Assembly: GCA_019429145.1 (NCBI GenBank)
Contig: JAHYJI010000003.1
Location: 47 to 64,046, forward strand
DNA: 64,000 nucleotides
Source: Coriobacteriia bacterium
GTDB lineage: Bacteria; Actinomycetota; Coriobacteriia; Anaerosomatales; SLCP01
Direction of reading: 5' to 3'
How positions within the stretch are numbered: position 1 is the first letter of the stretch; every line of letters begins with the position of its first letter. Under the pieces are notes generated by a model. The model made no database searches. It saw only the letters and a program-made list of their open reading frames with translations, and was not told the origin of the DNA. The translations under genes were made by a program, and so were the position numbers. Of this stretch, positions 24,946-53,310 are shown piece by piece.

Positions 24946-25683
24946 TCAAGAACCAGTTCAGGCGGGGCACTCGCCCCATCTGTTTCTGTCGAGAGACAGA
25001 CGTCGTTCGAGATCAAGCCGCCATCCATCACGCGCCGGGCTCACGGTCGAAGCAACCCCTCGACGCTAGATACTCGGCGAACCGCCTGTCCGCGTATCCT
25101 ATGCGGTCGCAGAGCCAGGTGGTCACAAGGCCGCCATCTCGTCTGAGGCATCCTCGAATACGATCGCGTCATGGAGTTCATTGGCGAGCGCAGCCTCAGG
25201 TCTCGGCTGTGAGGCCTCAGTCTGGTTCGACGGTTCACGTTCGAAGAGACCCAGCACGAACTCGCCGAGTTCGACGAATCTCCCCGGCTCCAAGCCCGGT
25301 CAGTTCCCGGAACTCAGGTTGTCGCATACCGATCACGCAGGCGAGGAACAGCGGGGCGACAAAGCGGTGGTCCGCGGGCGGCTGCGCACAAGGTCGACGT
25401 AGAGCATCTGATGCGCCGCGCTGGTTCGTCGAGGCTCAGATTAGCGAAGCCTTCGGCAAGCACGATCTTCGCCATTCGTCATGGCGTCTAGGAGAGGACT
25501 TCGGCGGAATCCACACAAGTGCCACAACCCATCTGGGTATATAGGTGGAGTTGAGCGTGAAAAACTCAAGTTCTGCGCATAGCCGACAGCCAAACGTGGC
25601 TGAGGTCAAGATTGAGGCGATTCCCGGTGCGCGTACAGATTGTTCGTGCCCGCAGACCGAAACACAGATCTCGAGTTCTAAGA

Positions 25684-30849: not shown

Positions 30850-31535
30850 CGTCCAGAGGCCGCCATCCCGTGAGCGTTCGTGTGGTCGCCCTGGGCGCCG
30901 TCATGCTCGTGCTGGGGGCCGGCTTCGCGTACGCCGTGATTGCCAGCCGTGCACTCAACACGGTGACCACGCCGGCGCTCACGGTGGCCGTCGAGGAAGG
31001 AACCGATGGTGAGCACTACGAGGGATGGACCGACCCCGGCACCCAGTGGGGTGCGACGGTTCCCAAGTACGTCCGCTTCACCAACACCGGCCAGGCCCAC
31101 GTGGTCATGCGCGTCAGCTACGCACAGGCGTGGACGCTCGAGACCACCGAGGGCGGCGTTCCCGTCACGAAGCAGCTCAGCAACACCTACCGGACGGAGA
31201 CGGCCGAGTACGCGGTCGCCACACTCGACTGGACGTCTGCCGGCCTTCTCAACACCGACCTGTGGTTCGACGGCGGTGACGGCTGGTACTACTACCGGCA
31301 CGTGTTGGCGCCGGGCGAGAGCTCTGACGCCGTGCTGGCTTCGGTGACCTTCGTGGAGCCGGCACCGTACGGGTACGACGGTGCCGAGTACCAGCTCCGC
31401 TTCATCACCGAATCCTGCCAGTACAGCACGAACCTCCTGAACAAGAACCAGGAGGCGGTCTGGACGACGTTCGGCATGACCTACGAGGAAGTCGGCGGGG
31501 CGCTGGTCTGGAGCCAGACCGCGCCGGGCGTGTGA
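30846..31535 (+). CDS. TasA/camelysin-like SipW-dependent exported protein, paralog 1
   Basis: 229 aa. N-terminal VVALGAVMLVLGAGFAYAVIAS, core VPKYVRFTNTGQAHVVMRVSY, GGDGWYYYRHVLAPGES and YQLRFITESCQ. The ATG overlaps the stop of the giant gene (ATGA). Confidence 0.7.
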   Translation: MTSRGRHPVSVRVVALGAVMLVLGAGFAYAVIASRALNTVTTPALTVAVEEGTDGEHYEGWTDPGTQWGATVPKYVRFTNTGQAHVVMRVSYAQAWTLETTEGGVPVTKQLSNTYRTETAEYAVATLDWTSAGLLNTDLWFDGGDGWYYYRHVLAPGESSDAVLASVTFVEPAPYGYDGAEYQLRFITESCQYSTNLLNKNQEAVWTTFGMTYEEVGGALVWSQTAPGV

Positions 31536-31564
31536 GCGCCGGGCAGCAAGGGGCGAGAGACGCG

Positions 31565-32176
31565 ATGGGCAAGCACAGGAAATGCGGCAACAACTGGTTC
31601 ATGAAGCTGCTGCTGGCATGCTTCGTGGGCCTCACGCTTGCCGCGATCTCCTACACGCTCGCGTTCTTCACCGACGAGGGCTCGGCGGAGAACTTCATCA
31701 CCGCGCGGTCCCACAACGTGGCCCTTGTCGACCTCTTCGACAAAGGCCAGTTCACGCTTCCGGGCGACACCGTGCCCAAGGTGGTCTACATGCGCAACAC
31801 GGGTGGCGCAAAGGCCGTGATCCGGATGCGCCTGACGCCGTCGTGGGACCCGGCACAGGCGGGCGAGTACGTCCTCGACCCCGCGGTCGTGACCGTTCAC
31901 CTGGGCGAGACGGTGGCAAGCGACTGGACGTTCTACGACGGCTGGTACTACTACAACCACATCCTGGAGCCGGGCGACGCCACCGGCCATCTGGTGGAAG
32001 CGATCGAGCTGGGCGTGGTTGCTAACGACGCGCACGCCGCGGACTACTCGGGGGCTTCGTACACGCTGGACGTGGAGGGCGAGTCGCTCCGGGCGGACGC
32101 AACCCTGACGCAGGACGAGTGGAACATCGGCTTCCAGGTTGACGCGGGCACCGCGATCACCTGGCTGACACCCTAG
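31565..32176 (+). CDS. TasA/camelysin-like SipW-dependent exported protein, paralog 2
   Basis: From ATG 31565: MGKHRKCGNNWFMKLLLACFVGLTLAAISYTLAFFTDEGSAENFIT. Core VPKVVYMRNTGGAKAVIRMRL, YDGWYYYNHILEPGDA, YTLDVEGESLRA. Confidence 0.75.
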   Translation: MGKHRKCGNNWFMKLLLACFVGLTLAAISYTLAFFTDEGSAENFITARSHNVALVDLFDKGQFTLPGDTVPKVVYMRNTGGAKAVIRMRLTPSWDPAQAGEYVLDPAVVTVHLGETVASDWTFYDGWYYYNHILEPGDATGHLVEAIELGVVANDAHAADYSGASYTLDVEGESLRADATLTQDEWNIGFQVDAGTAITWLTP

Positions 32177-32184
32177 GAGGCGAC

Positions 32185-32691
32185 TTGAAGATCGTTGGCG
32201 GCGTCATCAACGTACTGACTGCACTCGCGTATGTGGTGGTGGTGTTCGTCCTCGTCATCGCGGCGCCGCTTGCGCTCGGCTACAACCCGGTGGTCGTGCT
32301 GAGCGGGAGCATGGAGCCCACCTACAAGGTGGGGAGCGTCATCTACTACAAGCAGGTGGCGTTCGACGACATCCAGGTGGGCGACGTCATCACCTACAAG
32401 TCCCGGGACGACGTTGGCAACGCGGTCACCCACCGCGTGCACGCCATCAACGAGGCCGAGCGGACGCTCACGCTCAAGGGGGACGCCAACCCCTCGCCCG
32501 ACCCAAGCGCGATCCCCTACGGAATGGTGCAGGGGGAGGTGATGCTGTACGAGCTGCCCTACGTCGGCTACATGGTCCAGTACCTGCGCAACTACTACTT
32601 CATTGCGGCGCTGTTCGTGGTGTTCGTCGCCAAACTGCTCTACGACCGGCTCTCAGGAGGCAAGGCAGATGCAGAAGAGGAGTCTCAATAG
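32185..32691 (+). CDS. sipW: Signal peptidase I, SipW/archaeal-ER type (S26B)
   Basis: 168 aa with N-terminal TM helix, catalytic VVLSGSMEPTYKVGS, VTHRV, LKGDANPSPD, and a C-terminal TM helix. TTG start 4 nt after AGGAGG (32175-32180). Confidence 0.85.
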   Translation: MKIVGGVINVLTALAYVVVVFVLVIAAPLALGYNPVVVLSGSMEPTYKVGSVIYYKQVAFDDIQVGDVITYKSRDDVGNAVTHRVHAINEAERTLTLKGDANPSPDPSAIPYGMVQGEVMLYELPYVGYMVQYLRNYYFIAALFVVFVAKLLYDRLSGGKADAEEESQ

Positions 32692-32824
32692 CAGCCGAGC
32701 CTCGCGTGTGGGGTCGCTGCTCCGGCAGCGCACCGTAAGGGGGGTGATGCGGGCGCACACGTGAGGATCGATCCATGGCACCAGACTGAACCGTATGCAC
32801 GAATGGACTGAAGGAAGGATCATC

Positions 32825-33625
32825 ATGCGTAAGATCAAGAAGTCGCTGCCGCTGTTCGGCATGATCGCGCTGGTTGTCGCGATCGCCATCGGTGGCACCT
32901 TCGCCTACTTCTCCCAGACGGGAACGGCGGAGAACTACCTGACCACGATGACCTACGACTCGACCATCACGGAAGACTTCACCCCGCCGGCCGACGGCGC
33001 GTTCGCCCCGGACGTCGAGATCGACAAGGAGGTGGGCGTCACCAACACCGGCGAGATTCCGTTCCTCGTCCGCATCAAGTACGAAGAGGCTTGGAACGGT
33101 ACCCCCGTGTCGCTCACCTACGCCGACGCGGTCAACACCCCGTCGGGTTCGGAAGTCTGGATCTACGACGGCGACACCGAGGACGACTCGGTCGTCAAGA
33201 AGATCAAGTACGGCGAGACCGCCGGCTGGACCTACGGTGGCGACGGTTACTACTACTACCTGGCCGAACTGGATCCGGGCCAGACCGCGCCGAGCTTCAT
33301 CGACTCCATCATGCTGAAGGCGTCGACCGTCAACGAGGACACCAGCTGGGTGCTGACGTGGTGGGACGGCACCGCCGCGGACTACGTCGATGAGACCTTC
33401 ACGAGCCAGGGCGCAGTCGACGATCGCAAGGCTGCAATCATGCTCATGGAAGACGGATCGTATCTCGTCAACGTCATCGAGAACACGAAGACCACGCTCG
33501 ACATGGAGGGCGGCTACACGCTGACCTTCACGATGGAGACCGTCCAGGCCATCGAAGAGGGCGCGGATTCGTGGACGACCCCGACCGTTACAGACGTCAT
33601 TACGTTCCTCGGCGGCGTTCTGTAG
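32825..33625 (+). CDS. TasA/camelysin-like SipW-dependent exported protein, paralog 3 (candidate major subunit)
   Basis: From ATG 32825: MRKIKKSLPLFGMIALVVAIAIGGTFAYFSQTGTAENYLTT. Core DKEVGVTNTGEIPFLVRIKY, GGDGYYYYLAELDPGQT, YTLTFTMETVQA. It has its own 130-bp upstream gap and is followed by strong hairpins. Confidence 0.75.
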   Translation: MRKIKKSLPLFGMIALVVAIAIGGTFAYFSQTGTAENYLTTMTYDSTITEDFTPPADGAFAPDVEIDKEVGVTNTGEIPFLVRIKYEEAWNGTPVSLTYADAVNTPSGSEVWIYDGDTEDDSVVKKIKYGETAGWTYGGDGYYYYLAELDPGQTAPSFIDSIMLKASTVNEDTSWVLTWWDGTAADYVDETFTSQGAVDDRKAAIMLMEDGSYLVNVIENTKTTLDMEGGYTLTFTMETVQAIEEGADSWTTPTVTDVITFLGGVL

Positions 33626-33662
33626 TCAGCCCCTTAGGGGCTAGTCGCTCTTACGAGTGGTG

Positions 33663-33692
33663 GCACCCGGTGGCGCTTGCGCCACCGGGTGC
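33663..33692 (+). terminator. 13-bp perfect hairpin after paralog 3 (terminator/attenuator candidate)
   Basis: GCACCCGGTGGCG-cttg-CGCCACCGGGTGC, preceded by a smaller hairpin AGCCCC-tta-GGGGCT (33628-33642). No U-tract. The next gene starts 30 nt later. Confidence 0.55.
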
Positions 33693-33721
33693 GCCCCGGA
33701 AGATCCAGGAGGGGAGGTGCC

Positions 33722-35497
33722 GTGAACAACGCCTATCGACGCTCGATGACTGCAGCGCTGCTCGCGGCACTGCTCCTCGTCGCGCTTGGTGCTGCGCCCG
33801 TCGGGGCGTTAGCCGCAGTCGCCATACCCACCACCACCTACGATGGCTGGCGCGCGGACATGGACGGGAAACTGCTCACCGACAGCGAAGGCTACTACGT
33901 CCTCACGGTCACGCCCCAGATGGCGGCGGACGGCGACATCACGCTCCAGTGCAACCGATTCGCGCGGCTGTTCCTGAAGGACTTCCGCAACATCTCCAAC
34001 ACCGACACGACGTACAAGATGAAGATCGTCAACGCCAGCGGCAAGACGATCACCTACCGCGACTACGCGTTCACCACCCACAACGTGCTGCCCCGCACGG
34101 ACAACATCTTCGGACCCGCCACCGGCGCGATCACCGACTCGCCGGAGCTGGGCAGGGGGTTGGGCTCGGCCTATGCCGCGATGCTCCCCACCATCCTGAC
34201 CGCCGGGACCTATACCGACCTCTGCATCGACACGCAGGGGTTCGACGGCAATAACATGAACCTCATGATGGTGCCGCTCCGCTGCACGAACGACGCCATC
34301 TGTTCGTTCTACGGCGTGGACCACACGTTCGATGTCACGCTTCCCCAGATCATGCATCTCGACGAGAATCTCGCCGCGCGTGGCTACTCCAGCTACGCCC
34401 ACTACCTCAAGAGCTACTACGGCGTCGCCAGCCTCTCCAACCTGCCGCCGGCGACCGTGTACAACATCCTCGGCACCACCAACGGCGCACAATCCGCCAT
34501 CACCAACTGGCGTGACAATACCATCGGCGGGAAGCCCATCCCGGCCTCCGAGCTCGGTAGCCTGACGAACGAGTTCAGGATCTGGGGGCTTCTCCACCTC
34601 AACGGCGATTCCAGGGACGCGGCGCAGTATCCGTACGTCCCCAACTTCTTCATGATGGAGACCGATCCCGAGGTCCTCCAGCTGGCCTACGACTACCTGT
34701 ACACTGACGGTCTTCGCTTCAGCTTCGACCAACTCACCCAGCCGTTCGACACCACGGACAACGAGCACGGCCGCGGCGGCGACTTCGGCATCAAGGCGTA
34801 TGTGAACAAGAGCCCGGGCTCCACCGCCCACGTCAACAGCGTCTTCGGCGGCGTCACCCTGGCCGACGGCGATGAGCTGAAGCTCGACAACGTGACGGCG
34901 GGCCTCTACGTCCCCAACGCGTGGAACCAGTACCGCCTCTACGACTTCGGATTCAACCTTATCTTCACAACTGACGAGGTCTACACGCTCGCTATCACGA
35001 AGACCGGCCGGGACCTGAACGGCCCGCGGCTTGTTCCGGGCGACGTCATCGAGTGGCGGATCGTGGTCAGGAACACGGGTCCGACGGTGTTGACGAACGT
35101 CGAGGTCGTCGATGACGTCCCATCGACGACGGCGTACGTCCCGGGCTCGATCACCGGGCGCGGAGCTGATGATTCCGCGTCTCGACGCCTGCGATGGCTG
35201 GTGGGCACGCTGAACCCGGGCGAGTCGGTCACGCTCACCTTCCGGTCGACCGTCAACGCGGGCCTGCCCAACGGAACGGAGATCCGCAACCAGGCTGCGG
35301 TGCATTCCGATCAGGTCGGCTGGCGCTACTCGGACGATTCGAGCACGCCGATTCCCGGCGACGCCACGCTGCTGCGCACCGGAGGGAACGACTGGATATG
35401 GCTGGGCGTCACCGTGGCCGCAGTGCTGTTGGGGCTTGTGGCACTGCTGTACGGGTTGCTCCTGAAGCGCCGGAAGCGTAAGCAGGCATCGTCCTAG
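33722..35497 (+). CDS. Cell-wall-sorted surface protein: novel N-terminal region, C-terminal DUF11 domain, LLRTG sorting signal
   Basis: GTG 33722 follows AGGAGGGGAGG. Signal peptide TAALLAALLLVALGAAPVGALA. DUF11-like LAITKTGRD...VVRNTGPTVLTNVEVVDDVP. C-terminus ATLLRTGGNDWIWLGVTVAAVLLGLVALLYGLLLKRRKRKQASS. Confidence 0.8.
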   Translation: MNNAYRRSMTAALLAALLLVALGAAPVGALAAVAIPTTTYDGWRADMDGKLLTDSEGYYVLTVTPQMAADGDITLQCNRFARLFLKDFRNISNTDTTYKMKIVNASGKTITYRDYAFTTHNVLPRTDNIFGPATGAITDSPELGRGLGSAYAAMLPTILTAGTYTDLCIDTQGFDGNNMNLMMVPLRCTNDAICSFYGVDHTFDVTLPQIMHLDENLAARGYSSYAHYLKSYYGVASLSNLPPATVYNILGTTNGAQSAITNWRDNTIGGKPIPASELGSLTNEFRIWGLLHLNGDSRDAAQYPYVPNFFMMETDPEVLQLAYDYLYTDGLRFSFDQLTQPFDTTDNEHGRGGDFGIKAYVNKSPGSTAHVNSVFGGVTLADGDELKLDNVTAGLYVPNAWNQYRLYDFGFNLIFTTDEVYTLAITKTGRDLNGPRLVPGDVIEWRIVVRNTGPTVLTNVEVVDDVPSTTAYVPGSITGRGADDSASRRLRWLVGTLNPGESVTLTFRSTVNAGLPNGTEIRNQAAVHSDQVGWRYSDDSSTPIPGDATLLRTGGNDWIWLGVTVAAVLLGLVALLYGLLLKRRKRKQASS

Positions 35498-36112
35498 ATG
35501 AGCGGGTCGAGGGCCAACGGGTCCGGCTGGGTGCTGTTGGGCATCGCATTGCTCGTGTTCAGCGTTGCCGTTGCGGTATACAACCTGTGGCCGGACATCA
35601 CGTTCCAGGCCGGCCTGGTCGAGCCCTCGGTGCCGTACCCGTCCAAGTTCGCCGACGCGCCTGCGGGTGAGGTGCCGTCAGACGCCACTCAGGCGATCCC
35701 TGCCGAGCCGAGGGTCGTCATCCCCCGCATCGCCGTGGACGTACGCATCTACAAGGGCGATGCGCAACGGGCGCTCAAGCTCGGCGTGTATCACCACGCC
35801 GGGACAGCCGCCCCCGGGGAGCCCGGTAACATGGTCATCGCCGGCCACCGCAACAGGCGGCAGTTCGCGCCGCTGTCCTATCTCGAGAGCGGCGACGTGA
35901 TCCTGGTCTACTGGGATGGCGCCGAATACGGCTACAGGGTCACGCAGGTCTATCAGGTCGAGGCGGTGGAGACGTCGGTGCTTGCGCGGGGAGACACCGA
36001 GATGCTGACCCTCTATACCTGCACCCCGCGATTCCTGGGCAACAAGCGGACCGTCGTGGTGGCCGAGCCACTCACGGGCGTCCCCGAGGCAACTTTCGGA
36101 GACTCCCAGTAA
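35498..36112 (+). CDS. Sortase (membrane-anchored transpeptidase, class E/F-like)
   Basis: 204 aa with N-terminal TM helix, catalytic His in MVIAGHRN, Cys in MLTLYTCTP, and Arg in GNKRTVVVAE. Starts directly after the stop of the LLRTG protein. Confidence 0.85.
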   Translation: MSGSRANGSGWVLLGIALLVFSVAVAVYNLWPDITFQAGLVEPSVPYPSKFADAPAGEVPSDATQAIPAEPRVVIPRIAVDVRIYKGDAQRALKLGVYHHAGTAAPGEPGNMVIAGHRNRRQFAPLSYLESGDVILVYWDGAEYGYRVTQVYQVEAVETSVLARGDTEMLTLYTCTPRFLGNKRTVVVAEPLTGVPEATFGDSQ

Positions 36113-42996: not shown

Positions 42997-45900
42997 CTAC
43001 CCTCCGAGCAGCATGACCTTCACGTGGTGCTCCCGGCCGTCGCCTGACAGCGGCACGAGGGGTTCGTCGAGGACGGCGCCATCGAGCTCGATCCAGGCCA
43101 CGCCCCGGTTCACGCCGCGGGGGTTCTCGACCGTGATGTGGTAGGTCGAGTCCCCGTCCCGGTAGATCATCTCGAACCCGGGCCACGTCTTGGGTATGCA
43201 GGGGTCGACGGTGAAGTGCCGTTGTCCGCTCTGTGCCAGGGGGCGCAGGCCGAGCAGGTTGTTGACGGTCACCCGGTAGAACCACGACGCCGAGCCGGTG
43301 TACCAGGTCCACCCGCCCCGGCCGGTGTGCGGGGCGACCGCGTAGACGTCGGCGGCCACCACGTACGGCTCGACCTTGTAGCGGGCCACGCCCCCGGCAT
43401 CGAGTGCATGGTTGATCGGGTTGATGAGATCGATGAGCGAGACACCCTCGTCGCCGTCACCCCTCAGCAGGTGTGCGAGCGCGACCCAGATCGCCGCGTG
43501 CGTGTACTGCCCGCCGTTCTCGCGAACGCCGGGCACGTAGCCCTTGATGTAGCCGGGGTCATGCGACATGCGATCGAACGGCGGCGAGAGCAGGGCGACC
43601 AGCCCGTCCTCCATCCGCACCAGTTTCTCCTCGACCGATTCGAGCGCGCGGGCGGCGCGAACGGGGTCGCCCTGGCCGGAGATGACCGCCCATGCCTGGG
43701 CGATCGCGTCGATCCGGCACTCCTCGGCGTCCTTGGTACCGAGCGGCGTGCCGTCGTCGAAGTACGCACGGCGGTACCAGCCGCCGTCCCAGCCGGACTC
43801 GTCGGCCGCTGCGACGAGCCGGGCGGCGTGTTCGCGGTAGCGCTCGGCGCGATCCGTCTCGCCCTTCAGCTCGCAGAGCGGAGCGAATGCCCGGAGTGTC
43901 ACGTCGAGGAACCACGCGAGCCACACGCTCTCACCCAGGCCTTCGTGACCGACGCGGTTCATGCCGTCGTTCCAGTCGCCGCCGCCGATGAGCGGGAGCC
44001 CGTGCGCGCCGACATCGAAGGCGAGATCGAGGGCGGCCGTGCAGTGCTCGTAGACGCTCGCGGTCTTCTCGCTCACCGTCGGCTGTACGTAGGCGTCCTC
44101 GGCACCCGGCTCCAGCAGGGGCGCCTCGATAAAGGGAGTGCGCACGTCGAGCACGCTCGTGTCCCCGGTGGCAGCGACGTACTCGGCGGTCACGAAGGCG
44201 AGCCAGTGGCGGTCGTCGGTGATGCGGGTGCGCACGCCCCGGCCGGAGAGAGGCTGCCACCAGTGCAGCACGTCGCCCTGTTCGAACTGGCGGCGCGAGG
44301 CCTCGACGATCTGGGCGCGCATGAGGTCGGGGCGTGCAAGCGCAAGTCCGAGCGTGTCCTGCAGTTGGTCGCGGAAGCCGAGGGCTCCTGACGACTGGTA
44401 GGTTGCGGTGCGTCCCCACAGCCGGCATGCGAGCGACTGGTAGAGCAGGCGCCCGTTGACGAGCAGGTCCAGCGTCGGGTCCGGGGTGCTCACCTGGACG
44501 GTCTGTAGCATCCCGGCCCACATCGCGCGGACTCCCTCGAGTGCGCGGTCGACCGACCCGGGGGAGCGGTAGCGTGCGACGAGGCCGCGGGCTTCCTCGA
44601 GCCGCTCGGTCTGGCCGAGCATGAACGTGACCTCGCTGCTCTCGCCGGGTGCGAGCGAGACCCCGGTCATGAGCGCGCCGCAGTTGTCGTGGAAGCGCCC
44701 GCTGCGCCCGTCGAGCCGCTCGCGTTCCATTGCGGCGGGGGCGGCGGGTCGGCGGTTGCGGCCCACGAACTCGCTGCGGCTCGCGGTCCACGAGTGGAGT
44801 GGCCGGTCGCACGCGAGGAAGGTCGGCCGCCCGGGGAAGTCGGGATTGTAGTGGTTGTGCGCGGTGAGCATGTCGTGCTCGGCATCGAACCACGTGACGA
44901 CGAGATGTTGTGCCTGGCTGCGCGATGAGCCGAGCACCCACTCGACGAACTGGGTCGCGGTGAGCCGCCTCGGCACGGCCGAGACGTTGGTCAGGCGAAG
45001 TCGTACGAGACGTACGGGGTCCTCGGCGGGTACGAACCAGTCGAGTTCGTGGGCGATCCCGTGGGAGATGTGCTCGAAGCGCGTGTAGCCGAACCCGTGG
45101 CGAACGACAAAGGGCTCGGTCGAGCGACAGGGGAGCGGGGTGGGGCTCCAGTACTCGCCGGTCTCCTCGTCGCGGATGTAGATGACCTCGCCCGAGCCGT
45201 CCGAGACCGGGTCGTTGTTCCAGGTGGTGATCCGGTTCTCGTGGCTGTTGACCGCCCACGTGCATCCAATGCCCGCCTCTGAGACCAGGCAGCCGAACTC
45301 GGGCGTGGCCATGACGTTGACCCACGGTGCGGGAGTGGTCGCGCCATCCTCGAGCACGATGACGTACTCGCTGGTCTGCGGGTCGAAGCCGCCCAGACCG
45401 TTGTCGTGCACGAGCGATGGCCGCTCGAAGGCAGGCGCGTCGAACTCGCGCGGCTCTGACACCAGTTCCAGCGCCGGTGGGTCGACCGGCCGCTCGCCGC
45501 GGCGGTTGAGTTGCAGTTCGATGGTGCCTCCATCGCCCTCGAGCACGGCGCGCGCCACGCTCTCGAGCAGGTTCAAGACGTCGGGGTGCATCTGGTCGGA
45601 GCGGCGCAGGAAGATGCCGCCCGGCTTGTCGACGAGCTGCAGAGCGTGTCCGGTGCGCACGAGGAGTCGCAGCCGGTCGTCGAGCTCGTCGGAGTAGGCG
45701 GTGGGGCGCGTGTTGAGCACGACGAGGTCGGAGACGAGTCCCTTGTGCCGCCAGTACTGGTGGGCAAGGAGCGCCTGGCGTACGAGAGGTGCATGCTCCG
45801 GCTCGTCGATGCGCACGAGCAGGATGGGGTTGTCCCCGGAGATGCCGAGCGACCAGAGCCCGGAGATCGGCAGGCCATTCTCGACCGGCGTCTTGGCTTT

Positions 45901-48900
45901 GAGCGGTGAGTACGGATCGGTGAGCAGCAGGCGAGACGCGAGCCGCTGCAGCACCACCGCGTCCTCGGCCGCGATCCCCAGGTCTCGCAGCTCGATCTGG
46001 GCCGCCGTCCAGGACAGGTCGATGGCGCGCTGTGAGGTGCGGATGTCCTGGTAGCGCTCGGCCAGCGTGAGTGCCTCGTCCCGGCTGGCGGCTACGCCGG
46101 TCACGTATGCGAGCCGTGCGCTCTCACCGGGACCGAGCTCGAGCGTATGCCGGATGGCGCACGCCGGGTCGAGCACGGCGCCCGCGGTCCCGGACAGGGC
46201 GCCTCCGGCGTGTACGGCCGCAGGAGTATCTGCGCCGTGCAGCCGTCCGAGGAAGCGGGCGCGGTCGCTCTCGTAACTCCACTCGCACGGACCGTCTTCG
46301 CAGCCCAGCACGTGGAAGCCCCACAGCCGCTCCTCGGCCGAGGAGCGCGGGCGCCGCGAGAAGAGCAGCGTGTCCTGTGTGTCGACGGCCTCGGTCTCGA
46401 CGAAGAGGTTGGAGAACGCCTTGTGTGCCTGGTCACCGCCCTGGTCGGTGAGGGCGATCTCGAAGTAACTCGTGACCTCGATCCGGTGGGGTTCCAGTCC
46501 ACGGTTCGACACGGTGAGACGGCGCACCTCGACGTCGTCTTCGGGAGAGACCGCGACCTCGGTACGGGTCTCGATGTCTCCGTCGCGACGGTAGTACTCG
46601 GCTTTGTCCGCCGAGAAGGTGACATGGTACGTGTCCGGCCGGGTCGAGACCGGGTTGTGCGCCGCCGACCAGACCGCACCGCTATCGACATCTCTGAGGT
46701 AGAAGAAGTGCCCCCAGCAGTCGCGAGTGATGTCCTCCCGGTACCGGGTCACCGAGATCCCCTTGTAGCGGCTGTAGCCGCCTCCCCCGTTGGTGACCAT
46801 GACCGAGTAACGGCCGTTGGACAGGAAGTGCGTGGCGGGTGCGGGAGTGTCCGCGAGCGGGTAGGAGCGGGTGACCGGCACCGGCAGCTCTTCGACCGAG
46901 CGGACCGACTCGACCTCGGCGACGTGGGGCGTGGCGAGCGCCACCGCACGCGGTGCACGCTCCTGGAGCAGCAGTTCGGCCGAGGCGACGGTCGGGTCGC
47001 AGTGGAAGCGCTCGCGCATGCGGTCACCCGTCAGCGCGTTGCCGATCGCAACGAAGCTCATGCCCTGGTGGTGCGCGAAGTACGAGCGGACCACTGCCCG
47101 CCGTTCGCCGGCGGGTACGCGTCCGGGAGTGAAGTCGACTGCCTCGTAGTACCCGTAGCGCCCGCGAGCGCCGATGTCGGCGAGGCGCCCGAGGTTGGCG
47201 TGGACGTGATCTGCCGCCACCGGCAGTGCGAGCAGCGTGGCGTAGGGAGCGATGACGATGTCCTCGGACAGGCCGCGCTTCAGGCCGAGACCCGGAACGC
47301 CGAACGCCTGATACTGGTAGGTCAGGTCCGCGTCGAGCACGTTGAACGCGGACTCCGACACGCCCCACGGGACTCCGAGCTCCCGCCCGTAGTGGATCTG
47401 CCGTCTGACCACCGCATCGTAGGTCTGGTCGAGCAGGGTCAGAGGCCAGGAGCGCATGACAAGCAGGGGCATGAGGTACTCGAACATCGACGCACTCCAC
47501 GAGAGCAGCGCCTGACCACCGTTCGCACGCGTGATCTGTCTACCGAGCCGGAACCAGTGCTCCTGCGGTACGTCGCCCTTCGCGATGGAGAGGAACGACG
47601 CGAGACGGCACTCCGAGGCGAGCATGTCGTAGTAGGAGTCGTCGAGGTGACCCTCTGCGGTGTTGTACCCGATCGAGAACAGCAGCCGCCGCTCGTCGAA
47701 GAGTACCGAGAAGTCGGTGTGTTCCCACATCTCGCGCGCGATATCGGCGCTCAGCCGCAGTCTGCCGAGCAACTCCGTGCAGCCCGGGCGTGCCGAGCGC
47801 ACGCCGGCGGCGACCGTCTCGGCCCACCGCGCCGCGGTCGATCGCTCGGACTCCTCCTCGCCCGGTGGTCCCTGCGCGATAGAGTCCAGGGCCTCGAGAG
47901 CCAGATCGAGCCCCTCGGAGAGCCCCACCAGGCTCGGCACGTGCGTGAGCAGGGGAGCGAGTGCAGCCGCGCGGACGTCGGTGGCAACCGCCCGGGGCAC
48001 CTCGGAGGTGACGGCGGCCCACGGGGCGAATGTCTCGAGGAGGGAGAGGGCGTCAGTGACCAGTCCGGTGACACTCTCAAGCGAGGCGCGGATACGGGCG
48101 GCCGGATCGGTGACGTGGAGCGGGTCTGCGGAGACGGCAGGAGCCGCGATGCTTTCGAGGTCCCCCGCCGCGTCGAGGGCCCGCTCGGCTAGTCCGTACC
48201 AGCGCATCAGCAGCGCGTGCCACGCGCCGGCATCGGCCGGCTGATCGGCGATCGCGGCATCGCGCCGCAACTCTTCGAGGGCCGTGCGCACCGCGGAGAC
48301 CGACTCCTCCGGTGTGAGGTGCGTCCGCTCCTCGGCAAGGTCGTGAAGCGCGAGCGCGACCGTGTCCTCGAGACCGGAGCGCAGCTGCGGGCCGAGGACC
48401 GGCGCTTCGGACGCCTCCAGGAGGCCGCCGCGAAGCACGAGCAGGTGGCCGGCGAGGTTACCGCTGTCCACGGTCGAGATGTAGTGTGGCGGCAGCGGTT
48501 CGAGCGTGCGAGTGTCGTACCAGTTGTAGAAGTGGCCCCGGAACCGCCGCATGCCGGCCATCGAGGAGAGCGTGTCTGCCGTGCGCTCCACGAGCGCGCC
48601 CAGCGTCTGGTAGCCGAGGTCGTATGCGGTCAGACCTGCGATGAGCTGCAGTCCGATGTTGGTGGGAGAGGTCCGGTAGGCCACCTCGCCCTTCGGGTCC
48701 TCCTGGAAGTTGTCGGGTGCCAGGTGGTTGCCTTCAGGCCCCACGAAGGTCTCGAAGAAGCGCCACGTCGACCGCGCGGTGCGCCTCAGCTCCTGGACGA
48801 GTGCGGGCTCCAGGGGCCTGCGCTCGAGGGCCCGGGTGCGTGAGACCCGCCATGCAACGAACGGCCCCGCTGCGAAGAGCGCGATGAGTGGTGCCGCCAC

Positions 48901-51813
48901 TGCCGCCCGCATGGGGGAGGCGAGCGTGCCCGGCATGAGCAGCACGATGGCGGCGACAGCGGCGGGGCCGAGGCGCCGCAGGTATCCGGAGACGCCCGGG
49001 CCGACGGAGCGCTCCACGTCTGCGGCGGTCTCCCACTCGAGCAGATCCCGGCGCGACACCCACATGCGCCACAGAGCACGCGACGCGGCGTCGATCATCT
49101 GGTACGCGTGATGGGGGAGTATCGCAAGCGCGAGGAGCGTGCGTGCGGAGTCCCGGCCGAAGTTGGCCCATACGGTCGAGGCGGTCCGCAGGAACGGGAC
49201 GTCCGGCGTCCGGAAAAGCAAGCCGTTCGCAGCGCTGAAGTACACGGGAAAGAGCAGCATGAGCATCATGATGAGCGGCCACGCCCATGCGGGCCCGGGC
49301 AGGAGCGCCCAGCCAAGTGTGAGCAGGGCCAGCATCGCCGGTCCGGACAGACTGCGCCGCAGGTTGTCGATCATCTTCCAGCGGTGCAGTGGGGTCAGCG
49401 GGTTGGGTGCCGTTCCCTGCTCGCGCGGTATGCGGCCACCGAGCCAGGGGAGCGTCTGCCAATCACCGCGCACCCACCGGTGCAGCCGCGCCGCCTGAGC
49501 GCGGTAGGCCGCGGGGTAGTCGTCGAGTACCTCGATGTCGGACGCCAGCCCGACGCGCACGAAGCACCCCTCGAGCAGGTCGTGAGAGAGTAGGGTGTTT
49601 TCCGGGATGGCGCCGTCCAAGACGCCTTCGAAGACGTTGATCTCGTAGATGCCTTTGCCGGTGAAGCTACCCTCGGCAAAGACGTCCTGGTAGGTGTCGG
49701 AGACGGCGCCGGAGTACGGGTCGATGCCCGTGACCCCTGAGTGCAACCACGCGTAGAAGGACCGGGTCGAGGCGGGGAGCGCCATGGAGACTCTCGGCTG
49801 GATGAGTCCGTAGCCCCTCCGGACGATGGGTTCGCCCGGTGTCCAGCGAGCGCGGTTCAGCGGGTGGGCGATGGTTGAGACGAGCTTGCGTGCCGTGTCG
49901 CGCGGCAACTGGGTGTCGGCATCGAGAGTCAGCACGAAGGTGACGCCTGCGAGGAACGATTCATCTCCGATGCGGTGGGTGAAGGACGTCTCGCGCGAGC
50001 GTTTCAGCAGGTGGTTGAGCTCGACGAGCGAACCGCGCTTGCGCTCCCAGCCCATCCAGGTGCCCTCGGTCTCGTTGAACGTGCGGCCCCGCATGAACAT
50101 GAAGAAAGGCGACCGCCCGTGCTCGGCGGCATAGCGCTCGTTGAGCTCGGCCACGCCGCGGATCGCCGCCTCGATGATCTCCGAATCGCCCTCGCGGTGT
50201 TCGCTGTCGCCGCCGCGGAGGTCGCCGAGGAGCCCGAAGCCGAGTTGCTCGTCACGGTTCGCAAGGTACGCCACCTCGATGTTGTCGAGCACCGAGCGAA
50301 CCGAACCCACGGACGTGAGCAGTGCGGGCACGACGACCAGGGTGCGGTGCGGTTCTTCGAGTGGCTCGAGGTAGTCGAGTTTGGGCAGCACGCGCGGGGG
50401 AAATGCAGCCGCCGCAAGCCGGTTGGTCACCGTGAGCGCGACATCGGAGAGCGGTATGAGTGCGAGCAGGATCACCGGGACGAGCAATACGGGTGCAGTG
50501 CCGGAGGAGAGCGCGTAGAACGCCAGCACTGCCGCGAGCACTGCGGTGATCGCCGCGATCGAACCCCAGTAGAAGAGAGCGCGGTGGCGGTGCAGGCTCG
50601 TCTCGAACCGGTCTCGCATACTCCGGGAGTAGGCGATGCTCTCTTCGAAACCCGGCCGGCCTTCCCCTATCAGGTAGTAGCCGACATGGCCGAGCGCAGG
50701 ATCGCCGTCCGCCAGCTCTGCGCCCTCCAGAGCCCAGCTCATCGCCGCCTCTGCGACCGCTATCTCCCCCAACGCGCAGCGCCGTGCGAGCTTCTCGAGT
50801 ACGTGCCGGTAGCGGTCGCGGCTGTGGAAGTCCATCCGTGCGTACACGCCGACGGGATCCGTGCGCAGGATGAGTTCGACGAAGCTGGTCTCCTCGAAGA
50901 ACCCCTTCCAGTCGAACGCCTCGAGGAAACGCACCGACGTGATGGAGTTCGCGATCGAGACCTGGTCGGCGGCCTGCTCCTGTTGGAGGCTGTGGGCCAG
51001 TGCGTCAAGGTCATAACCCGCCGAGACGAACCGCCGGGCGAGGAATGCGTTGGTGGCCTCTGAGCCCGCGTCCTCCCCCTGGAGACGCTGCGAGAGACGT
51101 ACGAAGAACGCTGGCGTCGCGTCTCCCGATACCTCACCGAGTTCGCCGAGGAGCGAGCGCAGTTCGTCGGGCCGGTCCTGGGCGGTCAGGAGGAGGCGCT
51201 CTGCCCACTCGTCCGCTGCCCGGGTTGCCCGGTACGAGGCGACCACCCGGGCGGAGAGCCGGCGGAGGTTCTCGACGAGCGCGACCCGCAGCATGATGGG
51301 GATCGCCCACGTCTCTCCGATGGTGAGCGGGGAGACGTCCTGGAAGCCCTGAACGAAGCGTCCGAGGAACTCCTCATCGAGGCGGGCGTCGGTGTAGGCC
51401 ACCAGAGATATCGTGGCCTCGTAGATGCGGGGGAACCCCTTGAGAGGATCGGTGGTCAGGCGCGGCAGCTCGACACCGTAGCGTTCGGGCAGGTCGTGGA
51501 GCACGGCTCGCACCTGCTCGTCTATCAGGTAGTAGTTGTCGAGAAGCCACTCGGTTGCGGGGGAGACCGGGTGCAGGTTGCGAACGGCCGCCGTCAGCAC
51601 GGCGTTGTCCGATTCGAGAGAGGCTGCCGCGCGCTTGAGCAGCGGAATGAGCGGGGTGGTCGCGGGCGGGGACTCGGTGGTCCACGTCTGCGCCCGAGCG
51701 AGGCGTCGCGCAGCATCTCCGATGCGCTCTGCACTGAGGAGCTCGCCCCTGTAGGGAGGCTCCATGCCCGCCTGATCGCCGGCGATTGGTACTGCGGTAC
51801 GCACGTCGGTCAC
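42997..51813 (-). CDS. Cyclic beta-1,2-glucan synthase-type giant protein (GT84 glycosyltransferase, TM region, GH94 phosphorylase-like domains; Cgs/ChvB/NdvB family)
   Basis: 2,938 aa. GT domain with VLTLDADTQLPRD. TM-rich middle section. C-terminal GH94-like GLPLIGGGDWNDGMN and GGQYTHAAIW. Size and order match Cgs/NdvB. GTG start after GAAAGG. Confidence 0.9.
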   Translation of the reverse strand: MTDVRTAVPIAGDQAGMEPPYRGELLSAERIGDAARRLARAQTWTTESPPATTPLIPLLKRAAASLESDNAVLTAAVRNLHPVSPATEWLLDNYYLIDEQVRAVLHDLPERYGVELPRLTTDPLKGFPRIYEATISLVAYTDARLDEEFLGRFVQGFQDVSPLTIGETWAIPIMLRVALVENLRRLSARVVASYRATRAADEWAERLLLTAQDRPDELRSLLGELGEVSGDATPAFFVRLSQRLQGEDAGSEATNAFLARRFVSAGYDLDALAHSLQQEQAADQVSIANSITSVRFLEAFDWKGFFEETSFVELILRTDPVGVYARMDFHSRDRYRHVLEKLARRCALGEIAVAEAAMSWALEGAELADGDPALGHVGYYLIGEGRPGFEESIAYSRSMRDRFETSLHRHRALFYWGSIAAITAVLAAVLAFYALSSGTAPVLLVPVILLALIPLSDVALTVTNRLAAAAFPPRVLPKLDYLEPLEEPHRTLVVVPALLTSVGSVRSVLDNIEVAYLANRDEQLGFGLLGDLRGGDSEHREGDSEIIEAAIRGVAELNERYAAEHGRSPFFMFMRGRTFNETEGTWMGWERKRGSLVELNHLLKRSRETSFTHRIGDESFLAGVTFVLTLDADTQLPRDTARKLVSTIAHPLNRARWTPGEPIVRRGYGLIQPRVSMALPASTRSFYAWLHSGVTGIDPYSGAVSDTYQDVFAEGSFTGKGIYEINVFEGVLDGAIPENTLLSHDLLEGCFVRVGLASDIEVLDDYPAAYRAQAARLHRWVRGDWQTLPWLGGRIPREQGTAPNPLTPLHRWKMIDNLRRSLSGPAMLALLTLGWALLPGPAWAWPLIMMLMLLFPVYFSAANGLLFRTPDVPFLRTASTVWANFGRDSARTLLALAILPHHAYQMIDAASRALWRMWVSRRDLLEWETAADVERSVGPGVSGYLRRLGPAAVAAIVLLMPGTLASPMRAAVAAPLIALFAAGPFVAWRVSRTRALERRPLEPALVQELRRTARSTWRFFETFVGPEGNHLAPDNFQEDPKGEVAYRTSPTNIGLQLIAGLTAYDLGYQTLGALVERTADTLSSMAGMRRFRGHFYNWYDTRTLEPLPPHYISTVDSGNLAGHLLVLRGGLLEASEAPVLGPQLRSGLEDTVALALHDLAEERTHLTPEESVSAVRTALEELRRDAAIADQPADAGAWHALLMRWYGLAERALDAAGDLESIAAPAVSADPLHVTDPAARIRASLESVTGLVTDALSLLETFAPWAAVTSEVPRAVATDVRAAALAPLLTHVPSLVGLSEGLDLALEALDSIAQGPPGEEESERSTAARWAETVAAGVRSARPGCTELLGRLRLSADIAREMWEHTDFSVLFDERRLLFSIGYNTAEGHLDDSYYDMLASECRLASFLSIAKGDVPQEHWFRLGRQITRANGGQALLSWSASMFEYLMPLLVMRSWPLTLLDQTYDAVVRRQIHYGRELGVPWGVSESAFNVLDADLTYQYQAFGVPGLGLKRGLSEDIVIAPYATLLALPVAADHVHANLGRLADIGARGRYGYYEAVDFTPGRVPAGERRAVVRSYFAHHQGMSFVAIGNALTGDRMRERFHCDPTVASAELLLQERAPRAVALATPHVAEVESVRSVEELPVPVTRSYPLADTPAPATHFLSNGRYSVMVTNGGGGYSRYKGISVTRYREDITRDCWGHFFYLRDVDSGAVWSAAHNPVSTRPDTYHVTFSADKAEYYRRDGDIETRTEVAVSPEDDVEVRRLTVSNRGLEPHRIEVTSYFEIALTDQGGDQAHKAFSNLFVETEAVDTQDTLLFSRRPRSSAEERLWGFHVLGCEDGPCEWSYESDRARFLGRLHGADTPAAVHAGGALSGTAGAVLDPACAIRHTLELGPGESARLAYVTGVAASRDEALTLAERYQDIRTSQRAIDLSWTAAQIELRDLGIAAEDAVVLQRLASRLLLTDPYSPLKAKTPVENGLPISGLWSLGISGDNPILLVRIDEPEHAPLVRQALLAHQYWRHKGLVSDLVVLNTRPTAYSDELDDRLRLLVRTGHALQLVDKPGGIFLRRSDQMHPDVLNLLESVARAVLEGDGGTIELQLNRRGERPVDPPALELVSEPREFDAPAFERPSLVHDNGLGGFDPQTSEYVIVLEDGATTPAPWVNVMATPEFGCLVSEAGIGCTWAVNSHENRITTWNNDPVSDGSGEVIYIRDEETGEYWSPTPLPCRSTEPFVVRHGFGYTRFEHISHGIAHELDWFVPAEDPVRLVRLRLTNVSAVPRRLTATQFVEWVLGSSRSQAQHLVVTWFDAEHDMLTAHNHYNPDFPGRPTFLACDRPLHSWTASRSEFVGRNRRPAAPAAMERERLDGRSGRFHDNCGALMTGVSLAPGESSEVTFMLGQTERLEEARGLVARYRSPGSVDRALEGVRAMWAGMLQTVQVSTPDPTLDLLVNGRLLYQSLACRLWGRTATYQSSGALGFRDQLQDTLGLALARPDLMRAQIVEASRRQFEQGDVLHWWQPLSGRGVRTRITDDRHWLAFVTAEYVAATGDTSVLDVRTPFIEAPLLEPGAEDAYVQPTVSEKTASVYEHCTAALDLAFDVGAHGLPLIGGGDWNDGMNRVGHEGLGESVWLAWFLDVTLRAFAPLCELKGETDRAERYREHAARLVAAADESGWDGGWYRRAYFDDGTPLGTKDAEECRIDAIAQAWAVISGQGDPVRAARALESVEEKLVRMEDGLVALLSPPFDRMSHDPGYIKGYVPGVRENGGQYTHAAIWVALAHLLRGDGDEGVSLIDLINPINHALDAGGVARYKVEPYVVAADVYAVAPHTGRGGWTWYTGSASWFYRVTVNNLLGLRPLAQSGQRHFTVDPCIPKTWPGFEMIYRDGDSTYHITVENPRGVNRGVAWIELDGAVLDEPLVPLSGDGREHHVKVMLLGG

Positions 51814-51930
51814 ACGCTCGACCTTTCATCGGGGGCCACACCTGTAGTCTAGACGACCGGGAACCCGTTTGGTGGGCTCCTTGCTTGGTGATGCCTGCGG
51901 CATGCGTCGTGCGGGCAGCGGTTGGTTTAC

Positions 51931-51960
51931 TTGCTCGTGGAATACCCCACAGGGTATGAT
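51931..51960 (+). promoter_or_regulatory. Candidate promoter with overlapping palindromic operator ATACCC-CACA-GGGTAT
   Basis: TTGCTC (51931-51936), an 18-nt spacer, then TATGAT (51955-51960). A perfect 6-4-6 inverted repeat at 51942-51957 spans the spacer and -10 element. Confidence 0.4.
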
Positions 51961-51972
51961 GTCCGGGTATCG

Positions 51973-52698
51973 ATGACTGACGGAAGGTGTTCATTGGACG
52001 CGAAGAAGATACTCCTCTGGGCCGGCGTGGCCCTGGTGATCGTCGTCGGCGCCGTGTTCCTCATGCGGCCGGCGAGCGGCGACGTTCAGAACGTCACCCC
52101 TGATCGAGCCGCGGAACTCGTGGCCGATGGGGTGCGCGTCGTCGACGTGCGGACGCCGGGCGAGTACGACCTCAGCCACATCCCGGGAGCCGAGAACGTC
52201 CCGATGGATGTGCTTGCCTCCGAGGCGTCAGCGTGGGACCCCGGCGAGCCGTTGCTCGTCTACTGCACCACCGGTGCGCGCTCCGCACAGGCGGTCACCT
52301 ACCTGGAGGCGCAGGGCTTCGAGACCATCTATCATCTGGACGCCGGGATCGTCACCTGGTCCGGTGACCTGGAAAAGGGGAGCGAGATCGCGGAGATGCC
52401 CGCGGACGTGAAGCCGGGGGATTCACCGGTGATATACGAGTTCTCCACCGACTGGTGACCCGCCTGCAAAGCGATGAAGCCTGTGGTCGACAGGCTCAAG
52501 CAGGAGTACGAGGGTAGGGTCGAGTTCCGGATCTACGACGTTGACAAGGACTCCGAGGGACAGGAGCTTATGCGGCAGTACGGTGCCCAGTACGTGCCGA
52601 CCTTCGTGTTCGTCAACAGTGATGGAACCGAGGCAAACCGTGCTGTCGGGGAGACCTCGGAGAGTGAGATGCGCAGACTGCTTGACTCTTTGCAGTAG
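51973..52698 (+). CDS. Membrane-anchored rhodanese-thioredoxin fusion with in-frame TGA at the CxxC nucleophile position (candidate selenoprotein, W-U-P-A-C)
   Basis: ORFs 51922-52458 and 52474-52698 are in the same frame and are separated only by TGA 52456-52458. Joined sequence: ...GDSPVIYEFSTDW[TGA]PACKAMKPVVDRLKQEYEGRVEFRIYDVD...YVPTFVFVNSDG..., a complete thioredoxin fold. The rhodanese active-site loop VYCTTGARS lies upstream. The start could be ATG 51973, or TTG 51994 after GGAAGG. Confidence 0.65.
52478..52496 (+). other. SECIS-like hairpin downstream of the in-frame TGA
   Basis: AGCCTGT-GGTCG-ACAGGCT, a 7-bp stem. The GGUC-containing apical loop lies 27-33 nt after the UGA. Confidence 0.5.
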
Positions 52699-53153
52699 AC
52701 CCGTGATAGGCGTTTCGCCCGCGGGGGTACAAACTTGATAGGCCCGGACCGGGACCGCAGGTCGGGTCTGGACAGTATCCGAGGCGGTCGAGAGGGTGAA
52801 TGCATCTCATTGGATGAGACGCAGAGCCAGGATTCAACCGGGATGGCAGACAAGACCTCCGGATGACCTCGCAGTGGAAGCGGTTAGATCGTTGAGAGTG
52901 ATCGATTCGACCAGCCGCCTCGAAGTGAGGCAGGCTTACTAGATACGTTTGGAACGGTAGGACTGGTCGCCGGAGAGTCGGGCATAAGCCCCTGGAAACG
53001 TGAGGATGCGGCCGGGAGTCAGAGCTCGAATGGCCAAGAGTCCTCAAAGGATATCCCTTTGGAGGGGAGCCTCGGGCGGTGCGAAGGCCATCTCGGTTAT
53101 TCCTGTCCGGACGCAGTGAAGAGCCCGCCCCGAGCGGGCTCTCGTGTACCCGC

Positions 53154-53184
53154 GGGACAACCCCGTCTTATGGCGTGATATAAT
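53154..53184 (+). promoter_or_regulatory. Candidate promoter of tRNA-Ala
   Basis: GGGACA (53154-53159), a 19-nt spacer, then TATAAT (53179-53184), 52 nt before the tRNA. Embedded in the short inverted repeat CGTGAT-ata-ATCACG. Confidence 0.35.
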
Positions 53185-53235: not shown

Positions 53236-53310
53236 GGGCGAGTGGCGCAACGGGAGCGCACCTGCTTTGCACGCAGGGGGTTGAGGGTTCGAATCCCTTC
53301 TCGTCCACCA
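53236..53310 (+). tRNA. tRNA-Ala (anticodon UGC), CCA encoded
   Basis: Hand-folded. Acceptor GGGCGAG/CTCGTCC with the G3:U70 alanine identity pair, D arm GCGC-AACGGGA-GCGC, anticodon arm CCTGC-TTTGCAC-GCAGG, T arm GAGGG-TTCGAAT-CCCTT, then ACCA. Confidence 0.9.

Follow-up and report, generated by a model that had tools for sequence, protein, structure and literature searches.

A 2026 catalogue of prokaryotic selenoproteins lists 119 families, among them thioredoxin (Trx), with an experimentally verified UxxC motif in which U is selenocysteine (Sec), and several exported families with a Trx fold and a UxxC motif (PMC13188914). The catalogue also holds rhodanese-like forms 1 to 4, which carry Sec in the rhodanese domain, and TsoB, which fuses a rhodanese to DsbD and has a UxxxxU motif (PMC13188914). 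A rhodanese with an ordinary catalytic Cys fused to a Sec-containing Trx is not among the 119 families of that catalogue. Here we describe such an arrangement in a 64,000-nucleotide stretch of DNA (the window) from a Coriobacteriia bacterium of the order Anaerosomatales (contig JAHYJI010000003.1). What public annotation treats as two genes is, on comparative sequence evidence, very probably one genuine Sec-decoded gene for a 234-residue, membrane-anchored rhodanese-Trx selenoprotein. The nearest relative is found in the metagenome-assembled genome (MAG) C14-13 (L001), at 97%. The initial annotation of this DNA had suggested that the architecture was undescribed as a selenoprotein, and its absence from the 2026 catalogue agrees with that view (PMC13188914).

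Two open reading frames (ORFs), 51922-52458 and 52474-52698, share one frame and are separated by just a TGA (52456-52458) and five sense codons, as the initial annotation had it; reading through gives ...VIYEFSTDW-[TGA]-PACKAMKPVVDRL...QYVPTFVF.... The TTG at 51994 is more likely to be the start than the ATG at 51973, because a Shine-Dalgarno (SD)-like sequence, GGAAGGTG, precedes it, the aligned codon of orthologues is ATG, and the 154-residue NCBI call for the 97% identical protein P0001 implies an equivalent start. The product would therefore have 234 residues, not the 241 initially proposed. The elements of the gene are as follows.

51982-51989: SD-like GGAAGGTG, 4 nucleotides (nt) upstream of TTG 51994.
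51994..52701, + strand: predicted complete selenoprotein gene, with TTG start, 234 codons including the Sec-UGA, and TAG stop at 52701.
52009..52065, + strand: hydrophobic N-terminal helix, ILLWAGVALVIVVGAVFLM, preceded by MDAKK and read from the sequence as a signal peptide or signal anchor.
52096..52362, + strand: rhodanese domain (Pfam PF00581, E=1.5e-17), with loop CTTGARS and Cys91 encoded by TGC at 52264-52266.
52405..52683, + strand: Trx-fold domain (Pfam PF00085, E=3.1e-15; PF13098, E=6.8e-14), with W-U-P-A-C and a cis-Pro in VPT.
52456..52458, + strand: in-frame TGA, putatively read as Sec, residue 155, at the nucleophilic position of UxxC.
52465-52467, + strand: TGC, resolving Cys158.
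52478..52496, + strand: hairpin AGCCUGU-GGUCG-ACAGGCU, resembling a selenocysteine insertion sequence (SECIS), with a 6-7 bp stem (52478-84 paired with 52490-96) and a 5-nt loop, GGUCG, at 52485-89.
52597-52599, + strand: CCG, the cis-Pro of VPT.

For the Pfam search, Cys was substituted at the TGA of the read-through protein. The Trx-fold domain scores 56.5 bits against PF00085 (gathering threshold, 23.5), which places it within the thioredoxin fold, and 52.5 bits against PF13098; classical thioredoxins are its relatives in the PDB. Pfam and the sequence agree with the earlier claim of a Trx fold, with VPT cis-Pro, in which the stop falls exactly on the first Cys of WCxxC. A transmembrane anchor and a rhodanese carrying CTTGARS had likewise been placed upstream in the same polypeptide, and both are recovered as the hydrophobic helix and the PF00581 match. 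The rhodanese loop, C-[AT]-[TV]-G-x-R-S among orthologues, is of the six-residue sulfurtransferase type, and 31 of 32 loci retain its catalytic Cys. Among proteins of solved structure, the closest relatives of the rhodanese domain are GlpE, PspE, YgaP and Sud, a polysulfide-sulfur transferase. All forms have a basic N-terminus followed by a hydrophobic helix of about 20 residues, which is kept in all full-length orthologues, while in the stand-alone and Cys forms a lipoprotein box (LAGC or MAGC) replaces the anchor helix. Because of this signal or anchor helix, or lipoprotein box, both catalytic domains most likely lie outside the cytoplasmic membrane.

The closest described systems share parts of this design. 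Like the Trx selenoprotein (PF00085, UxxC, WP_010956703.1; PMC13188914, Table 1), the protein has a Trx fold with Sec predicted in place of the N-terminal nucleophilic Cys, and a bacterial-type SECIS directly downstream within the coding sequence. Unlike it, the Trx here forms the C-terminal portion of a rhodanese fusion that is membrane-anchored and probably extracytoplasmic, and the motif is U-P-[AST]-C rather than one with the classical G-P dipeptide; the NCBIfam thioredoxin model TIGR01068 scores 54.6 against a cutoff of 96.8. TsoB (NF045694; as listed in PMC13188914) also combines a rhodanese with a DsbD-type thioredoxin-like domain in a selenoprotein, and our Trx domain aligns to the C-terminal Trx region of its model (positions 471-551, E=2.8e-10). 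TsoB has about 572 residues, a DsbD membrane domain and two Sec in UxxxxU, however, whereas the protein described here has no DsbD_TM and a single Sec, in the Trx UxxC, and scores 38.9 bits against the TsoB cutoff of 805. The rhodanese-like selenoproteins, forms 1 to 4 (PF00581 / NF041203), share a rhodanese domain of predicted sulfurtransferase type but carry Sec within it; here the rhodanese Cys is an ordinary TGC and Sec would lie in the fused Trx, and NF041203 (rhodanese_LYCAU) gives 29.7 against a cutoff of 115.

Rhodaneses of the GlpE/PspE type are single-domain proteins with a six-residue loop whose persulfide is resolved by thioredoxin, and PspE and Sud act outside the cytoplasm. These rhodaneses, and Sud, work with separate Cys-protein partners, whereas in our case the partner is fused and anchored and the acceptor nucleophile would be Sec. 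The exported or anchored Trx-fold UxxC families resemble the protein in location, fold and motif, and PF13098 matches here, but no rhodanese fusion is described for them; we set them apart by their descriptions. SaoT (NF040730) scores 23.4 bits against a cutoff of 65. The stand-alone form of our family reaches 30 against 170 for ResA, 28.9 against 210 for StoA and 17 against 230 for TlpA, and the fusion scores lower still. The protein reaches the cutoff of no curated selenoprotein model in NCBIfam. It is a new architectural variant of the Trx-fold UxxC selenoproteins, which mechanistically falls within the commonest bacterial selenoprotein class.

Homologues are annotated in pieces. A protein search returned about 40 homologues, all of about 154 residues and at 64% query coverage, and these are therefore cut at the same place. 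With the Trx domain alone as the query, 119 of the 120 nearest homologues are fragments of 71 to 76 residues that begin at the Met after the motif, and an exhaustive HMMER scan of 1.84 billion representatives, made with the 80-residue segment following the TGA, yielded dozens of 50%-identity clusters of such fragments. More than 100 clusters hold 74-residue proteins named "thioredoxin family protein" (in annotation from the Joint Genome Institute [JGI], "thiol:disulfide interchange protein") and about 40 hold 154-residue "rhodanese" entries; full-length members are missing from the annotation of every source in the protein collection, and the gene is split in every genome and metagenome checked.

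Such annotation corresponds to two separate genes, a 154-residue rhodanese ending at the TGA and a 74-residue thioredoxin-like protein starting at ATG 52474. Gene callers produce exactly these fragments in the more than 100 clusters, and the restart codon is ATG in 29 of 31 sequences. However, at the presumed start L044 reads GTC while L033 and L051 read GTG, and the Met of this codon is a conserved residue of the Trx helix. Strand beta1, the Trp and the entire CxxC center would be missing from the 74-residue product, as the initial annotation had pointed out for the second ORF. Moreover, protein-level selection acts on the five codons that separate the TGA from the ATG: the Pro following the TGA (+1) is invariant although spread over three synonymous codons, the Ser at +2 alternates between AGC and TCN, and the Cys at +3 is invariant. 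The Cys-type homologue P0168, described below, is one continuous protein. The two-gene reading fails on the Pro and Cys invariance and on the GTC of L044, and we regard it as highly improbable.

Conservation of the TGA itself was followed in ten genomic and 30 metagenomic loci; together with L051, 39 loci were examined at the site. The TGA stands at the identical codon in all 39, across protein identities of 40 to 97%; this includes 10 of 10 genomic orthologues (50 to 97% identity) and every metagenomic relative that covers the site. It is kept in fusion orthologues at 40 to 45% identity, in which the flanking motif has shifted from TDW to ST-U-PTC or PT-U-PTC, and in a stand-alone, lipoprotein-type Trx that has no rhodanese domain. 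Conservation of the same codon across 39 loci is not due to chance. Over the 79 codons that follow the TGA, the ratio of nonsynonymous to synonymous substitution rates (dN/dS) is 0.34 in frame, compared with 0.91 and 1.95 in the other two frames. Judged by this ratio and the codon pattern next to the TGA, the downstream segment is translated in frame and under purifying selection.

In nine loci, the true terminator of the same gene, 80 codons later, is also TGA, and the meaning of the codon is therefore context-dependent. This bears on a reassignment of UGA to Trp (genetic code 4) in the lineage, for which there is a precedent: such a change was documented in 2026 for a clade of Eggerthellaceae, members of the same class, with 31 to 40% GC and almost no UGA stops (PMC13462651). 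In addition, one database entry, P0297 (L051:232-642), reads TDWWPSC, with W at the position in question. Its DNA reads TGA, however, and the W is a mistranslation by the gene caller, a JGI call on a 1-kb contig made apparently with genetic code 4. We note that an artifact of this kind can mimic a Trp variant or evidence of codon reassignment. The window has 65.6% GC, TGA ends 16 of its 38 well-supported genes as well as the nine orthologues above, and the position aligns with Cys rather than Trp, so that we give reassignment almost no weight.

A natural control is provided by the Cys forms. P0168 (230 residues) has a lipoprotein signal, a rhodanese (CNTANRS) and a Trx with YEFYTDWCPGC, and its alignment with the window protein runs from end to end (40% identity over 231 residues, E=5e-59). 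Its DNA has TGT at the aligned codon, on a contig of 64.8% GC. Cys also aligns with the TGA in P0161, P0171 and L045-47. In P0168, the 21 nt equivalent to the hairpin fold with just -1.7 kcal/mol, and the other Cys forms either lack the hairpin or lack its codons, the equivalent stretch giving -1.7 to -3.9 kcal/mol or no fold across the Cys-form loci. In the sequences compared, the hairpin occurs only together with TGA. The initial annotation had proposed a look for Cys-containing orthologues, and P0168, with WCPGC, the same signal-rhodanese-Trx architecture and no hairpin, answers to that description.

The hairpin, present at 52478-52496 as first described, starts 19 nt past the UGA, and its loop 26 nt past. 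Alone it folds with -11.2 kcal/mol (z=-4.6), and none of 200 shuffled sequences folds as well. The published bacterial SECIS model specifies an apical loop of 3 to 9 nt, an upper stem of 4 to 16 bp, a G in the first two loop positions, 16 to 37 nt from UGA to loop and a minimum free energy (MFE) of -7.5 kcal/mol or lower (PMC13188914, Fig. 2A). Every hairpin variant tested lies within all of these limits (PMC13188914), with a loop of 5 nt (3 nt if the outer loop bases pair), a stem of 5 to 7 bp, a spacing of 26 nt and MFEs of -8.9 to -12.3. The loop GGUCG varies to GGUCA, CGUGG, CGUUG and GGUUC.

Across 37 distinct sequences, 95.4% of the hairpin cells are paired, compared with 18 to 46% when the 3' partner is slid, and RNAalifold, unprompted, predicts the same 6-bp helix. 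Columns 27 and 37 hold U-A in 28 sequences and C-G in nine, with no half-changed pair; columns 28 and 36 show a single flip from G-C to C-G, and a third pair shows a change from U-A to U-G. The stem is formed by codons that are rare in the genome: CCT makes up 8.5% of the codons for Pro, and AGG 8.3% of those for Arg. All 28 sequences with the Arg have CCT...AGG, and in all nine cases CCC is accompanied by GGG, which turns the Arg into Gly. Rare stem codons and a pairing preserved at the cost of an Arg-to-Gly change show selection on the RNA beyond that on the protein. In following the bacterial SECIS rules, and in being conserved and covarying, the hairpin bears out the checks first proposed for it.

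These data also speak to a pseudogene, in which a nonsense mutation from TGC to TGA would have struck a former Cys-type fusion. A single base change would be enough, and a Cys form does exist. Yet all 39 loci, down to 40% identity, have the TGA, the frame downstream is intact and under purifying selection, and the covarying hairpin is confined to the TGA forms; a change restricted to one strain with decay downstream, which the initial annotation had named as a counterindication, is not what we see. The likelihood of a pseudogene is close to nil. TGA conservation, the Cys/Sec pair and the covarying hairpin support the selenoprotein interpretation made at the outset, and we strongly infer from them that Sec is inserted at the UGA.

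Several observations weigh against Sec decoding. Neither the 64-kb window nor the 284 kb of examined loci contains selA, selB, selD or tRNA-Sec: ARAGORN finds no tRNA-Sec, whether in the window or in 37 loci, and tblastn with Escherichia coli SelA and SelB against the 284 kb of loci gives no match. The hairpin overlaps conserved codons (KPVVDRL), and part of its conservation is therefore protein-driven. Finally, Rfam returns no SECIS match, either at the gathering threshold on the window or at E<=10 on 52380-52620, which counts for little, as Rfam models bacterial SECIS elements poorly. A screen for other Sec-TGA genes (in-frame TGA, high third-position GC on both sides, and a hairpin) gave noise apart from the rhodanese-Trx gene, because hairpins are common at 66% GC, and we found no mention of selenium in the literature on Anaerosomatales.

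The machinery is nevertheless annotated in a carrier of the gene. Orthologue L010 comes from Coriobacteriaceae bacterium EMTCatB1, in which selD (1d0835), selA (1d0837) and selB (1d0838) are annotated, all with transcripts (PMC7943316, Table S5, 1c/1d locus tags). In the same table, 1d0707 is "pspE, rhodanese-related sulfurtransferase", at 106 to 283 transcripts per million (TPM). We take 1d0707 to be the 5' fragment of the L010 orthologue, because two genes further on comes 1d0709, the DMT permease found at L010:7173-8111. Within the same class, most Eggerthellaceae have tRNA-Sec and selB (PMC13462651). The initial annotation had called for the Sec-insertion genes to be sought elsewhere in the genome; the outcome is mixed, with selA, selB and selD annotated and transcribed in EMTCatB1 and none in the 64-kb window.

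The presence of this machinery also bears on whether the hairpin and SelB might direct a residue other than Sec to the UGA, either Cys via a selC*-type tRNA(Cys) or a residue inserted by near-cognate read-through. SelB-dependent insertion of Cys at UGA is described in some bacteria, and sequence data alone cannot tell which amino acid is inserted. Against this, selA and selD, which are needed only for Sec-tRNA(Sec), are annotated and transcribed in EMTCatB1; a TGY codon would serve for Cys, as it does in P0168; and Sec forms are much commoner than Cys forms, all 120 of the nearest Trx-domain homologues being Sec forms, which argues that the residue matters. We see only a slender chance that a residue other than Sec is used.

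With Sec at residue 155, a sequence of events can be proposed. The UGA at 52456-58 would be decoded by Sec-tRNA(Sec) brought by SelB, itself recruited by the hairpin; where recoding failed, RF2 would terminate translation, leaving a 154-residue anchored rhodanese without the redox motif. The full-length protein would be held on the outer face of the cytoplasmic membrane by its N-terminal helix and would present the Cys91 rhodanese together with the U155-P-A-C158 center. The rhodanese Cys would take up sulfane sulfur from thiosulfate, polysulfide or persulfide to give a Cys-persulfide, which the tethered selenolate would attack, so that sulfide is released or the sulfur handed on and a selenenylsulfide, U155-C158, is left. 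A membrane electron conduit of the CcdA/DsbD type would then re-reduce this bond. We propose this route because of the rhodanese loop type, the fusion in P0123 and the sulfur and Fe(III) respiration of the host. P0123 is a Cys-type protein from a JGI metagenome (514 residues), in which a DsbD_TM/CcdA membrane domain is joined to a tandem pair of Trx domains that belong to this family (FYSGDCPICERMAPVIDGLK); by analogy, it suggests a CcdA-type conduit as the family's electron donor and hence a reductive pathway. The order to which the host belongs respires sulfur/thiosulfate or Fe(III) (PMC9686372). The biochemical role would thus be extracytoplasmic reduction of sulfane sulfur or of disulfides, and the chemistry as drawn here, including substrate and electron donor, is offered tentatively, as possible rather than probable.

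Some of the data run counter to this role. Neither CcdA/DsbD nor any sulfur-metabolism gene is a conserved neighbor in the examined loci, and in the MAG locus L009 the rhodanese Cys is replaced by Tyr (TAT, at about L009 6265) while the Sec-TGA is retained. Separately, we note that a distant relative, P0214, has Ser at the Sec position (STSQSC). The Tyr of L009 and the Ser of P0214 may be natural inactive variants or sequencing errors.

The conserved neighbors, a giant GH94 gene upstream and amtB-glnK or tRNA-Ala downstream, offer no functional clue. The features that flank the gene are the following.

42997-51813, - strand: giant 2938-residue protein similar to cyclic beta-1,2-glucan synthase, with a pair of GH94 supersandwich domains plus one GH94 catalytic and one glucoamylase-like domain.
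About 52745-53170, + strand: conserved structured RNA, with a closing helix formed by about 52836-52847 and about 53087-53098.
53236-53310, + strand: tRNA-Ala(TGC), stand-alone and outside an rRNA operon, with its own conserved promoter-like box, GTGATATAATCACGCGGC.

The GH94 gene is divergent from the selenoprotein gene and holds the same position in 12 of 12 loci with enough flank (besides the window, L001-L004, L008, L010, L019, L022, L023, L026, L030 and L033). The tRNA-Ala(TGC) lies downstream in the window and in 20 other loci. Directly downstream of the selenoprotein gene and on the same strand, the structured RNA is found in at least 28 loci (L001-L010, L019-L027, L031-L033, L037-L039, L044 and L051, plus the window), including loci of the stand-alone Trx type and those in which amtB-glnK stands between the gene and tRNA-Ala. 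From 15 sequences, RNAalifold derives 53 pairs, of which 21 show compensatory changes, together with a long-range helix of 12 bp, CCGGGAUGGC/GCCAUCCCGG. Rfam 15 gives no match to the RNA and no recurrent family; the RNA is not a tmRNA, and an assignment to Ms1/6S was rejected as the synteny does not fit. In the RNA-seq data of EMTCatB1, a "hypothetical" ORF at this position, 1d0708, reaches a TPM of 150,000 to 250,000, the second highest. We put the downstream RNA forward as a candidate non-coding RNA that is abundant and unassigned to a class.

The window takes in the origin region of the chromosome, with parB, parA, rsmG, dnaA, dnaN, recF, gyrB and gyrA (window 1-24000 and 25612-36112, together with a surface-protein cluster). 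In the same stretches are very large surface proteins with DUF11 repeats, accompanied by matrix proteins of the BsaA/SipW type, a SipW signal peptidase and a class D/E sortase; this surface-protein and sortase cluster may be related to the pili-like appendages described for Anaerosomatales. The window also carries an Mrp antiporter.

Through the splitting of the gene in annotation, a protein widespread among Anaerosomatales (OPB41) and related Coriobacteriia has been hidden from functional inference. Read as one gene, it adds a membrane-anchored Cys-rhodanese/Sec-thioredoxin architecture to the catalogue of prokaryotic selenoproteins and provides a clean, covariation-supported SECIS from high-GC Actinomycetota. 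It would also imply that selenium is a requirement for these subsurface bacteria, which respire sulfur and iron. Cultured relatives, Anaerosoma tenue and Parvivirga hydrogeniphila, would make experiments possible if their genomes carry the gene. A further idea, which we judge unlikely though conceivable and which draws on analogy, is that the fusion acts as a selenium-dependent extracytoplasmic sulfane-sulfur (thiosulfate/polysulfide) reductase module of subsurface Coriobacteriia. Because the UGA lies between the catalytic units, selenium supply would switch the product between a rhodanese alone and a two-center enzyme. If true, a monoderm bacterium would here have an exported selenoenzyme of a new kind, and the enzyme would be linked to the respiration of sulfur or iron at the surface of the cell.

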